In this document: positions 1-5,545 of the stretch, piece by piece | Position numbering within the stretch: the first letter of the stretch is position 1 | Layout: every line of letters starts with the position of its first letter | Origin: a virus | Taxonomy: Duplodnaviria > Heunggongvirae > Uroviricota > Caudoviricetes | Virus record (IMG/VR): IMGVR_UViG_2529292726_000016 | Strand: one strand, 5' to 3' | Length of the DNA stretch: 5,545 nucleotides | The notes under the pieces: model-generated | The model's input: only the letters and a program-made list of their open reading frames with translations | What the model was told of the DNA's origin: nothing | The model's database searches: none | Position numbers and translations under genes: made by a program

Positions 1-141
1 CAGCGAAGGCAGTAACAAGCGCGACTTGATGTCGCACTGAAGGGTGCGGCCAGTATAGTTGGCGCGAGTCGGCAAAACTAGTTGACGTCTAATATCGGCA
101 ACTTTGGCGGCTTCCTTTCCATTAACAAACTTTCGCAGTAA
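1..141 (+). other. Possible 3' remnant of the upstream tail gene (gpL-like tail tip protein); not open in any forward frame across this stretch
   Basis: Frame 1 has TAA at 13..15 and TAG at 79..81, then a 19-codon open stretch (LTSNIGNFGGFLSINKLSQ) ending at TAA 139..141, 5 nt before the K ATG. Frame 2 stops at 38..40, 56..58 and 83..85; frame 3 stops at 27..29 and 90..92. The terminal peptide resembles what I recall of the lambda gpL C-terminus, and frame 3 encodes CRTEGCGQ (gpL-type proteins have C-terminal cysteines), but I cannot verify either. Confidence 0.3.
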
Positions 142-146
142 ATCCC

Positions 147-890
147 ATGACACAGACAGAATCAGCGATTCTGGCGCACGCCCGGCGATGTGCGCCAGCG
201 GAGTCGTGCGGCTTCGTGGTAAGCACGCCGGAGGGGGAAAGATATTTCCCCTGCGTGAATATCTCCGGTGAGCCGGAGGCGTATTTCCGTATGTCGCCGG
301 AAGACTGGCTGCAGGCAGAAATGCAGGGTGAGATTGTGGCGCTGGTCCACAGCCACCCCGGTGGTCTGCCCTGGCTGAGTGAGGCCGACCGGCGGCTGCA
401 GGTGCAGAGTGATTTGCCGTGGTGGCTGGTCTGCCGGGGGGCGATTCACAAGTTCCGCTGTGTGCCGCATCTTACCGGGCGGTGCTTTGAGCACGGGGTG
501 ACGGACTGTTACACGCTGTTCCGGGATGCTTATCATCTGGCGGGGATTGAGATGCCGGATTTTCATCGCGAGGATGACTGGTGGCGTCACGGTCAGAATC
601 TCTATCTGGATAATCTGGAGGCCACGGGGCTGTATCAGGTGCCGTTGTCAGCAGCACAGCCGGGCGATGTGCTGCTGTGCTGTTTTGGTTCATCGGTGCC
701 GAATCATGCCGCCATTTACTGTGGTGATGGCGAGCTGCTGCACCATATTCCTGAACAACTGAGCAAACGAGAGAGGTACACCGACAAATGGCAGCGACGC
801 ACACACTCCCTCTGGCGTCACCGGGCATGGCGCGCATCTGCCTTTACGGGGATTTACAACGATTTGGTCGCCGCATCGACCTTCGTGTGA
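147..890 (+). CDS. K: Tail tip assembly protein K (JAB/MPN metallopeptidase plus NlpC/P60 cysteine peptidase), long form
   Basis: ORF 147..890, 247 aa, TGA stop at 888..890. Complete JAMM signature H68-x-H70-x7-S78-x2-D81 (HSHPGGLPWLSEAD, nt 348..389) with a candidate upstream Glu (E19). Downstream is an NlpC/P60-like region with candidate catalytic Cys121 (GVTDCYTLF) and His residues (PNHAAIYCGDGELLHH). Start is uncertain: ATG 147 has no clear SD but lies 5 nt after a TAA; internal ATG 291 (MSPEDW) has GGAGG at 275..279 and would give the 199-aa form annotated in lambda, which lacks the N-terminal part of the JAB fold. Confidence 0.9.
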   Translation: MTQTESAILAHARRCAPAESCGFVVSTPEGERYFPCVNISGEPEAYFRMSPEDWLQAEMQGEIVALVHSHPGGLPWLSEADRRLQVQSDLPWWLVCRGAIHKFRCVPHLTGRCFEHGVTDCYTLFRDAYHLAGIEMPDFHREDDWWRHGQNLYLDNLEATGLYQVPLSAAQPGDVLLCCFGSSVPNHAAIYCGDGELLHHIPEQLSKRERYTDKWQRRTHSLWRHRAWRASAFTGIYNDLVAASTFV

Positions 891-1459
891 AAACGGGGGC
901 TGAAGCCATCCGGGCACTGGCCACACAGCTCCCGGCGTTTCGTCAGAAACTGAGCGACGGCTGGTATCAGGTACGGATTGCCGGGCGGGACGTCAGCACG
1001 TCCGGGTTAACGGCGCAGTTACATGAGACTCTGCCTGATGGCGCTGTGATTCATATTGTTCCCAGAGTCGCCGGGGCCAAGTCAGGGGGCGTATTCCAGA
1101 TTGTCCTGGGGGCTGCCGCCATTGCCGGATCATTCTTTACCGCCGGAGCCACCCTTGCAGCATGGGGGGCAGCCATTGGGGCCGGTGGTATGACCGGCAT
1201 CCTGTTTTCTCTCGGTGCCAGTATGGTGCTCGGTGGTGTGGCGCAGATGCTGGCACCGAAAGCCAGAACTCCCCGTACACAGACAACGGATAACGGCAAA
1301 CAGAACACCTATTTCTCCTCCCTGGATAACATGGTTGCCCAGAGCAATGTTCTGCCCGTTCTGTACGGTGAAATGCGCGTGGGGTCACGGGTGGTTTCTC
1401 AGGAGATCAGCACGGCAGACGAAGGGGACGGTGGTCAGGTTGTGGTGATTGGTCGCTGA
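788..1459 (+). CDS. I: Tail assembly protein I (N-terminal ubiquitin-like beta-grasp domain ending in Gly-Gly, then hydrophobic Gly/Ala-rich segment)
   Basis: ORF 788..1459, 223 aa, TGA at 1457..1459, the same length as lambda gpI. RBS-like GAGAGG at 771..776. Residues 14-101 end in ...HIVPRVAGAKSGG (Gly-Gly codons at 1085..1090). Next comes a roughly 55-residue hydrophobic stretch with repeated GxxxG/AxxxG spacing (VFQIVLGAAAIAGSFFTAGATLAAWGAAIGAGGMTGILFSLGASMVLGG), then a polar C-terminal tail. The 5' end overlaps the K 3' end by 103 nt in a different frame. Confidence 0.9.
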   Translation: MAATHTLPLASPGMARICLYGDLQRFGRRIDLRVKTGAEAIRALATQLPAFRQKLSDGWYQVRIAGRDVSTSGLTAQLHETLPDGAVIHIVPRVAGAKSGGVFQIVLGAAAIAGSFFTAGATLAAWGAAIGAGGMTGILFSLGASMVLGGVAQMLAPKARTPRTQTTDNGKQNTYFSSLDNMVAQSNVLPVLYGEMRVGSRVVSQEISTADEGDGGQVVVIGR

Positions 1460-1477
1460 TGCAAAATGTTTTATGTG

Positions 1478-1500
1478 AAACCGCCTGCGGGCGGTTTTGT
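1478..1500 (+). promoter_or_regulatory. Stem-loop in the I-J intergenic region (weak terminator or attenuator-like, or an mRNA structural element)
   Basis: Perfect inverted repeat AAACCGCC (1478..1485) / GGCGGTTT (1490..1497) around loop TGCG, followed by T-rich sequence (ttttgtcgttt). It lies between the I stop (1459) and the J RBS (GGAG 1508..1511, ATG 1520). Confidence 0.4.
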
Positions 1501-1519
1501 CGTTTATGGAGCGTGAGGA

Positions 1520-2515
1520 ATGGGTAAAGGCAGCAGTAAGGGGCATACCCCGCGCGAAGCGAAGGACAACCTGAAGTCCACGCAGTTGCTGAGTGTGATT
1601 GATGCCATCAGCGAAGGGCCGATTGAAGGTCCGGTGGATGGATTAAAAAGCGTGCTGCTGAACAGTACGCCAGTGCTGGACAGTGAGGGGAATACCAATA
1701 TCTCCGGCGTCACGGTGGTGTTCCGGGCAGGTGAGCAGGAGCAGACACCGCCGGAGGGATTTGAATCCTCCGGCTCCGAGACGGTGCTGGGTACGGAAGT
1801 GAAGTACGACACGCCGATTACCCGGACCATCACGTCTGCAAACATCGACCGTCTGCGCTTTACCTTCGGTGTGCAGGCACTGGTGGAAACCACCTCAAAG
1901 GGGGACCGGAATCCGTCGGAAGTCCGCCTGCTGGTTCAGATACAGCGTAACGGTGGCTGGGTGACGGAAAAAGACATCACCATTAAAGGCAAAACCACCT
2001 CGCAGTATCTGGCCTCGGTGGTGGTGGATAACCTGCCGCCGCGCCCGTTCAACATCCGGATGCGCAGGATGACGCCGGACAGCACCACAGACCAGCTGCA
2101 GAACAAAACGCTCTGGTCGTCATACACCGAAATCATCGATGTGAAACAGTGCTACCCGAACACGGCACTGGTCGGCGTGCAGGTGGACTCGGAGCAGTTC
2201 GGCAGCCAGCAGGTGAGCCGTAATTATCATCTTCGCGGGCGCATTCTGCAGGTGCCGTCGAACTATAACCCGCAGACGCGGCAATACAGCGGTATCTGGG
2301 ACGGAACGTTTAAGCCGGCATACAGCAACAACCCGGCCTGGTGTCTGTGGGATATGCTGACCCACCCGCGCTACGGCATGGGGAAACGTCTTGGTGCGGC
2401 GGATGTGGATAAATGGGCGCTGTATGTCATCGGCCAGTACTGCGACCAGTCAGTGCCGGACGGTTTTGGCGGCACGGAGCCGCGCATCACCTGTAATGCC
2501 TGGCTGACCACGTAG
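1520..2515 (+). CDS. J: J N-terminal fragment (331 aa) ending at the in-frame amber codon
   Basis: ORF from the track, MGKGSSKGHTPREAKDNLKSTQLLSVIDAISEGPIEGP..., the conserved N-terminus of lambda-family J proteins. Terminates at TAG 2513..2515. Confidence 0.8.
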   Translation: MGKGSSKGHTPREAKDNLKSTQLLSVIDAISEGPIEGPVDGLKSVLLNSTPVLDSEGNTNISGVTVVFRAGEQEQTPPEGFESSGSETVLGTEVKYDTPITRTITSANIDRLRFTFGVQALVETTSKGDRNPSEVRLLVQIQRNGGWVTEKDITIKGKTTSQYLASVVVDNLPPRPFNIRMRRMTPDSTTDQLQNKTLWSSYTEIIDVKQCYPNTALVGVQVDSEQFGSQQVSRNYHLRGRILQVPSNYNPQTRQYSGIWDGTFKPAYSNNPAWCLWDMLTHPRYGMGKRLGAADVDKWALYVIGQYCDQSVPDGFGGTEPRITCNAWLTT

Positions 2516-4918
<2,403 letters not shown>

Positions 4919-4935
4919 ATTTTATAACCCAGAAC

Positions 4936-4963
4936 GGGCGTCAGAAATGACGCCTTTTTTATT
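4936..4963 (+). terminator. Rho-independent terminator between J and lom
   Basis: Perfect 7-bp GC-rich stem GGCGTCA (4937..4943) / TGACGCC (4948..4954) with GAAA tetraloop, immediately followed by TTTTTTATT (4955..4963). It sits 18 nt downstream of the J stop. Confidence 0.75.
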
Positions 4964-4984
4964 GCAGAAAAGCGAGAGGTAATT

Positions 4985-5545
4985 ATGCGTAAACTTTATG
5001 CCGCCATTTTGTCCGCAGCCATTTGTCTGGCCGTATCCGGTGCGCCTGCATGGGCGTCTGAACATCAGTCCACGCTGAGCGCTGGGTATCTTCATGCCCG
5101 GACGAACGTTCCCGGCAGTGATGATCTGAACGGGATTAACGTGAAATACCGTTATGAGTTTACGGACACACTGGGGCTGGTTACGTCATTCAGCTATGCA
5201 GGAGACAAGAATCGCCAGCTGACCCATTACAGCGATACCCGCTGGCATGAAGATTCCGTGCGTAACCGCTGGTTCAGCGTGATGGCGGGGCCGTCTGTAC
5301 GCGTGAATGAATGGTTCAGCGCGTATGCGATGGCAGGCGTGGCTTACAGCCGTGTGTCGACTTTCTCCGGGGATTATCTCCGCGTAACTGACAACAAGGG
5401 GAAAACGCACGATGTGCTGACCGGAAGTGATGACGGTCGCCACAGCAACACGTCTCTGGCGTGGGGGGCTGGCGTGCAGTTTAACCCGACCGAATCCGTG
5501 GCCATTGATATTGCTTATGAAGGCTCCGGCAGTGGCGACTGGCGC
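4985..5545 (+). CDS. lom: Lom outer-membrane protein (Ail/Lom/PagC/OmpX family beta-barrel), 5' partial, runs off the window end
   Basis: ATG at 4985 with SD GAGAGG (4973..4978). The frame is open to the window end (187 codons): MRKLYAAILSAAICLAVSGAPAWA|SEHQSTLSAGYLHARTNVPGSDDLNGINVKYRYEFTDTLGLVTSFSYAGDKNRQL.... It has a typical Sec signal peptide with an AWA-S cleavage site and alternating aromatic/hydrophobic beta-strand patterns, and matches lambda Lom as I recall it. It is absent from the ORF track only because no stop falls inside the window. Confidence 0.92.
   Translation, partial: MRKLYAAILSAAICLAVSGAPAWASEHQSTLSAGYLHARTNVPGSDDLNGINVKYRYEFTDTLGLVTSFSYAGDKNRQLTHYSDTRWHEDSVRNRWFSVMAGPSVRVNEWFSAYAMAGVAYSRVSTFSGDYLRVTDNKGKTHDVLTGSDDGRHSNTSLAWGAGVQFNPTESVAIDIAYEGSGSGDWR

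Follow-up and report, generated by a model that had tools for sequence, protein, structure and literature searches.

A lambda-type tail gene K very likely yields a single 247-residue protein with two predicted peptidase domains, and its shorter annotated form stems from a base missing from the lambda reference

Our analysis indicates, with high confidence, that positions 147-890 of the window (that is, the whole 5,545-nt stretch of viral DNA analysed here) are an ordinary lambda-type gene K, that the sole functional product of this gene is the 247-residue protein translated from ATG 147, and that the 199-residue K of the lambda reference arose from a single G missing from the reference sequence. 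The two-peptidase, 247-residue K is itself an already known and ordinary protein. Lambda K was recognised as having the JAMM motif in 2003 (PMC300881), the combination of JAB and NlpC/P60 domains was described by Iyer et al. 2006 with reference to a 2003 paper, PGAP labels the 744-nt coding sequence in E. coli prophages as a C40 family peptidase, a lambda record of 2025 (PV340536.1) gives K as 247 aa, and the lambda 247-aa sequence is found on at least 1000 contigs. What is added here is the missing G as the cause of the short reference K, together with the finding that there is no evidence for a second isoform, which a preliminary description of the same DNA had considered possible.

Judged by its sequence, the window from position 95 onward is the tail module of a lambda-like prophage, with 99.6% identity over 95-5545 to a prophage of E. 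coli 510016 and 98-99% identity to lambda-group phages. The end of L is followed by K (147-890), I (788-1459), J (1520-4918) and a lom homologue from 4986 (Table 1); that is, the L-K-I-J order of lambda-type TAPK loci is found, with L present only as a 47-nt remnant here and the order whole in relatives. Downstream of J, as in lambda, positions 4986-5545 hold the start of a gene for an Ail/Lom-family outer-membrane protein, preceded at about 4930-4960 by a GC-rich stem and T run resembling a terminator. At the other end, megablast found no match for positions 1-94, and blastn, which is more sensitive, showed them to be the end of ISEc10; istB stops at 27-29, and the terminal region of the element follows until lambda-like homology begins at 95. 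The L frame upstream of the remnant has stops at 13-15 and 79-81 by direct reading, and the idea that 1-94 might be a shuffled copy of the homologous L segment was tested and ruled out; none of the complete E. coli genomes searched spans the junction between the insertion sequence and L. Gene J carries an amber codon (TAG at 2513-2515, codon 332; CAG in E. coli 510016), which divides it into open reading frames of 331 aa and 795 aa. Because of the insertion element in L and the amber codon in J, the prophage is defective.

Table 1. Features of the K region and its surroundings, in window coordinates.
Feature	Coordinates	Strand	Evidence
3' end of the IS21-like element ISEc10, replacing most of gene L	1..94	+	99% identity to many E. 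coli ISEc10 copies
Remnant of tail gene L (last ~15 codons)	95..141	+	Aligns with the 3' end of L in lambda and E. coli 510016; TAA 139-141
Gene K, full-length coding sequence (247 aa + TGA, ATG 147-149)	147..890	+	ORF list; same 744-nt CDS called by PGAP in E. coli prophages; lambda record PV340536.1
48 N-terminal codons missing from the reference annotation (helix 3-15, catalytic Glu, strands 21-27 and 30-36)	147..290	+	dN/dS; relatives
Predicted JAB/MPN (JAMM) metalloprotease domain, residues 3-98	153..440	+	Pfam PF14464; PDB profile matches; AF2; Foldseek; 99 distant relatives
Inverted repeat CTCCGG-TGAG-CCGGAG, perfect over 6 bp	263..278	+	Direct reading; hairpin predicted in local fold
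Internal GGAGG (275-279) and ATG 291-293 (Met49), the reference start	275..293	+	-9.5 kcal/mol anti-SD duplex; 10-11 nt spacer
G absent from J02459/NC_001416, between reference 14266 and 14267	281..281	+	Pairwise alignment; translation; pattern counts
Predicted NlpC/P60 (C40) cysteine peptidase domain, residues 114-224	486..818	+	Pfam PF00877; triad conservation; Foldseek
Gene I, which overlaps the 3' end of K and encodes the ubiquitin-like tail assembly protein, proposed as substrate or partner of K	788..1459	+	ORF list; Pfam Lambda_tail_I, 100 bits, I residues 14-97

The K protein of the window is identical to WP_001436386.1, and its predicted N-terminal peptide is MTQTESAILAHAR, or TQTESAILAHAR without the initiator Met. 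Pfam places Prok-JAB (PF14464) at residues 3-98 with 51.9 bits (cut-off 25) and NLPC_P60 (PF00877) at residues 114-224 with 48.2 bits (cut-off 23). In the 199-aa form, the NlpC/P60 domain is still above its cut-off, and Prok-JAB falls to 22.9 bits, under the cut-off, with just profile positions 63-103 of 114 remaining, which bears out the initial proposal that both domains are intact only when translation starts at ATG 147. The JAMM motif, E-x(n)-H-S/T-H-x7-S-x2-D, is complete, with the Glu upstream and the residues where they had been placed at the outset (E19, H68, S69, H70, S78 and D81); direct reading gives their codons as GAG 201-203 for E19, 348-350 for H68, 354-356 for H70, 378-380 for S78 and 387-389 for D81. 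The NlpC/P60 triad is encoded at 507-509 (C121), 705-707 (H187) and 741-743 (H199). By these comparisons, K is predicted to pair a zinc metalloprotease with a cysteine peptidase, both sets of catalytic residues being intact. An open reading frame on the minus strand (162-590) overlaps K; here, it is the plus-strand frame that shows codon-position-specific constraint and strong domain matches.

The 48 residues that the reference annotation lacks appear, from sequence comparison and structure modelling, to be both coding and part of the MPN fold. With regard to coding, dN/dS over codons 2-48 was 0.06-0.09 vs. 0.11-0.15 for codons 49-247, based on a codon alignment of 15 K copies and pairs with dS of 0.45-1.1, and in the N-terminal segment the third position was variable in 43 of 45 codons, vs. 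25 for the first and 21 for the second position. Twelve N-terminal residues (I8, L9, A12, P17, E19, S20, C21, G22, Y33, N38, S40 and F47) are invariant in 22 homologues sharing 67-95% identity, as are all six JAMM residues. Three copies, two in E. coli ECMA0423 (L056 and L057) and one in Shigella flexneri SFBU1023 (L059), have multiple frameshifts in the first 50 codons and are either pseudogenes or the result of indel errors in the assemblies.

Conservation of the segment extends well beyond the close homologues. A tblastn search found relatives of K in 1746 phage records (T1-like, HK022-like, phi80, Burkholderia, Rhizobium, Vibrio and Klebsiella phages included), 1718 of which span 80% or more of the 247-aa query, and most of the matches among the distant phages listed begin at K residue 3. 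From the 2750 relatives recovered by an exhaustive HMMER search, we took 99 cluster representatives below 62% identity as a distant set, and in every one of these the alignment begins no later than query residue 19. Glu is retained in 97 of the 99, after a median of 20 residues (18 in the K of the window); H68 and D81 are kept in all 99, H70 in 98, S78 (T being counted as well as S) in 98, and the JAMM residues overall in 90-99. The triad of the second domain is equally well preserved (C121 and H187 in 98/99, H199 in 97/99).

With regard to the fold, the profile searches were consistent with the expectation that residues 1-48 would lie within the MPN domain: the Pfam match starts at residue 3, residues 1-48 taken alone match Prok-JAB profile positions 3-41, and a family profile compared with PDB aligns with 2KKS, 2KCQ and 5LDA from position 4, with E19 on their catalytic Glu. 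The AF2 model predicts a helix at 3-15 and strands at 21-27 and 30-36, with pLDDT of 86-94 over residues 1-40, in a model that is moderate overall (mean pLDDT 73.9, pTM 0.58, residues 234-247 poor) and that we used for the N-terminal domain and for fold-level matches only. At that level, the best PDB matches by Foldseek were P. furiosus JAMM1 structures (5LD9/5LDA; 104-125 columns, target-normalised TM of 0.64-0.67), followed by Rpn11, CSN5 and DSY2949, and the C-terminal half of K matched MepS/Spr-type NlpC/P60 enzymes and Acd33800.

The preliminary description was correct in stating that the lambda reference starts K at an internal Met (MSPEDW): in J02459/NC_001416, K is annotated at 14276..14875 as 199 aa, which corresponds to a start at window position 291. 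The reason for this start is, however, not its better Shine-Dalgarno (SD) sequence, as had been supposed, but that the upstream ATG is out of frame in the reference, which is one G short. Alignment of the two sequences reveals a one-base gap, with GGAGGCGTATTTCC in the window and GGAGGCTATTTCC in NC_001416. Translation from the reference ATG that follows the L stop (14133) reads MTQTES...GEPEA before it leaves the frame and meets a stop, and the same ATG in lambda imm21 opens the full 247 aa. That is, the equivalents of ATG 147 and ATG 291 lie in different frames in the reference sequence, and ATG 14276 opens the longest reading frame left in the K frame because the missing G shifts ATG 14133 out of it; adding the G back gives lambda, too, this 247-codon reading frame. 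Hence, the 199-aa K is the part of the K frame left over in a reference lacking one base and not a biological isoform.

The records that lack the G are few. In a first count, the G was present in 31 of 64 loci, carried among others by lambda imm21, mEp460_4F5, phage Turner, HK629 and E. coli prophages, as well as by DE3-type records, and only two reference records were then found without it; in the final count of 74 loci, only four lambda records lacked it. These four are J02459 and its RefSeq copy NC_001416 (the same 1982 sequence), OR974322 and the unverified OR474059. Taken at face value, they could reflect a real polymorphism of some stocks, the lambda isolate of 1982 truly having had no G and having made a functional 199-aa K, with a dispensable JAB domain, and this is the reading to which we give the least credence of all those weighed here, with hardly any probability. 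The first two are one sequence, the coordinates of OR974322 and OR474059 are identical to those of the reference, from which both may derive, and nearly all of the 99 distant relatives have retained the JAB motif.

Further, about 20 independent assemblies that contain lambda DNA all have the extra G, which for most of them is the sole difference from NC_001416 over up to 1.7 kb. These contigs (loci L018-L029, L037, L039, L043, L044, L047, L048, L053 and L060), mostly of low coverage, came from a scan of species-representative genomes. The assemblies concerned are labelled Neobacillus, Pseudoxanthomonas, Pseudomonas, Shewanella, Bradyrhizobium, Kitasatospora and others, and the lambda-identical contigs in such unrelated assemblies are most likely contamination with control DNA; as such, they serve as independent resequencing of lambda. 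The base after a GC-rich hairpin is a classic site for gel compression, and the inverted repeat at 263-278 ends 3 nt before G281 and contains most of the internal GGAGG; the missing G may thus be a gel-compression artefact. The G is also present in lambda gt10: a variant table for the MutaMouse lambda-gt10 transgene lists 14266 C>CG (PMC6760142, Table 5). This entry was all that our literature search on an error in the start or frame of the reference K returned, with no explicit statement found, and Iyer et al. 2006 do not mention a truncation or a start problem of K.

Once the G is restored, ATG 147 and ATG 291 are in frame with each other, and the question becomes whether K is made in two programmed isoforms, the 247-aa protein with both domains and a shorter, NlpC/P60-dominated protein from ATG 291, each with a role in tail assembly. 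We consider this improbable. The SD comparison in the preliminary description was accurate: ATG 147, 5 nt after the TAA at 139-141, has no predicted SD pairing upstream (+0.7 kcal/mol), and the GGAGG before ATG 291 reaches -9.5 kcal/mol and by SD match ranks this codon among the best 1% of all NTG codons of the window. A product from ATG 291 would also retain a recognisable NlpC/P60 domain, and Iyer et al. 2006 report NlpC/P60-only versions of TAPK in some prophages. However, at 10-11 nt the spacer between the GGAGG and the ATG is long, the GGAGG is made up of the Pro-Glu-Ala codons and sits within a predicted hairpin of 6-7 bp, and the short product would be left with about 50 residues of MPN domain lacking helix 1, two strands and the Glu. 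The short annotation itself goes back, historically, to the frameshifted reference rather than to protein data.

The comparison with relatives also speaks against two isoforms, since neither the internal Met nor the GGAGG is conserved. At the Met49 codon, close prophage relatives already differ, Escherichia ruysiae (L035) having CTG, Escherichia albertii (L042) ATC, one E. coli copy (L069) ATT and one Salmonella copy (L065) ATA; copies from Citrobacter, Salmonella and Edwardsiella no longer have the GGAGG; and in the 99 distant relatives the column has Ile in 65, Met in 12, Leu in 12 and Val in 6. Met49 thus appears, from the substitutions seen in it, to be a buried hydrophobic position and not a conserved initiator. 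An internal start conserved together with its SD beyond the needs of the protein, as looked for in a dual-start gene, was not found among the relatives, and the suggestion of two isoforms is accordingly left without comparative support. Adventitious initiation at ATG 291, at a low level, may occur within the lambda clade. A narrower version, in which the GGAGG and ATG 291 drive some independent initiation in the lambda clade only and the resulting short, NlpC/P60-only gpK has, beside the full-length protein, a tail-tip role of its own, is if anything slightly less probable than the general one.

Annotation of the same reading frame as 199, 211, 224 or 247 aa in different records raises the further possibility that the true start is an intermediate in-frame codon, GTG 216 (224 aa) or a codon near 255 (211 aa). 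The phage mEp460_4F5 is annotated from the GTG equivalent to 216, which has a weak SD-like GGAG (-6.1 kcal/mol), and KT232076 has a coding sequence of 636 nt, as for a start near 255. Both starts would remove helix 1 and the Glu conserved in 97 of 99 distant relatives, purifying selection acts on the codons that precede them, which all relatives conserve, and the Pfam JAB match begins at residue 3, for which reasons we regard either start as very improbable. Hence, we favor ATG 147 as the start of the only functional product.

How K might be translated from a start with no SD is suggested by its position relative to L. In close relatives, the K start lies 4-11 nt after the L stop in nearly all copies (one Salmonella copy has 102 nt), and among eight divergent phages the spacing ranges from a 1-nt overlap to a 3-nt gap in seven, the exception being Burkholderia vB_E253 with 49 nt. 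That is, the close spacing of K start and L stop that a coupled gene pair would show is conserved in nearly all loci examined. Termination-reinitiation coupling is established for coupled bacterial genes. Since no SD precedes ATG 147 and the start follows the L stop by 4-11 nt in nearly all close relatives, K would be translated by ribosomes that terminate on L and re-initiate at ATG 147, and we conclude that translation of K is probably coupled to that of L in this way. Clades differ in this respect, with no SD before the K start in the lambda clade and an SD inside the L 3' end in several others. Re-initiation coupled to L would be expected to keep the output of K low, which would suit an assembly enzyme that is absent from the virion. 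In the prophage of the window, the disruption of L by the insertion sequence has probably abolished the coupling.

With respect to function, gpK is needed for tail assembly (PMC12617516) and was not detected in virions by mass spectrometry (PMC10721106), and Iyer et al. 2006 proposed that the peptidases of K process the ubiquitin-like protein I at a C-terminal glycine. Under this proposal, K would act on I during assembly of the tail tip, and we follow it in taking gpI as the probable substrate of the predicted K peptidase in tail-tip assembly. Only residues 135-223 of gpI are modelled in the virion, which is compatible with such processing, although it is no proof of it. The start of gene I itself has several candidates, namely ATG 788 (223 aa, as in the lambda reference), ATG 827 (210 aa), TTG 854 (201 aa) and GTG 887 (190 aa). 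PGAP uses GTG 887, which overlaps the K stop, in several genomes; this start drops 25 of the 83 profile positions of the ubiquitin-like domain of I, and the Pfam Lambda_tail_I match begins at I residue 14, which corresponds to ATG 827.

It is important to note that the error in the reference has practical consequences. J02459/NC_001416, the lambda reference in widest use, and the annotations copied from it still have K short by 48 residues, the catalytic Glu included, and a cluster of K calls of the 199-aa type has 3331 members. Any K clone, structure prediction or interaction screen that follows the reference annotation has a broken JAB domain. The lambda two-hybrid map, for instance, took its protein list from J02459 and reported no interaction of K with other tail proteins, for which a truncated K clone may be responsible. 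Likewise, the proposed processing of I by K needs a full-length K construct to be tested.

Finally, the K of the window can be placed among known systems at several levels of relatedness. Its closest counterpart is lambda gpK (NP_040598/AAA96551, annotated as 199 aa), with about 98% identity at the DNA level and with the L-K-I-J order, the JAMM motif and the NlpC/P60 triad in common. The lambda reference differs in the absence of G281 and in a K annotated 48 residues short, whereas the window copy differs from lambda in belonging to a defective prophage, with L cut by ISEc10 and an amber codon in J. At the level of the second domain, residues 114-224 share the papain-like fold and the Cys-His-His triad of E. 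coli MepS/Spr and other NlpC/P60 (C40) enzymes. Unlike MepS/Spr, K has no signal peptide or lipobox context and would act in cytoplasmic tail assembly, and a cell-wall role is unsupported because gpK was not detected in virions. The first domain has its best structural and profile matches, over K residues 3-105 and at about 20-25% identity, in minimal JAMM enzymes (P. furiosus JAMM1, 5LD9/5LDA; the Haloferax-type desampylase, NF041370; and DSY2949, 2KKS), which share the MPN+ fold and the E...HxH...S..D metal site with K. Against the desampylase equivalog NF041370, K reaches 29 bits, far short of the cut-off of 130, and it differs from these enzymes in being fused to an NlpC/P60 domain and in having a substrate that is only putative. 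Lastly, the TAPK family of Iyer et al. 2006 has the identical two-peptidase architecture beside the gene for the ubiquitin-like TAPI, with catalytic residues conserved family-wide, and the lambda-clade copies show no substantive difference from it apart from lacking the SD that several other clades carry in the L 3' end.
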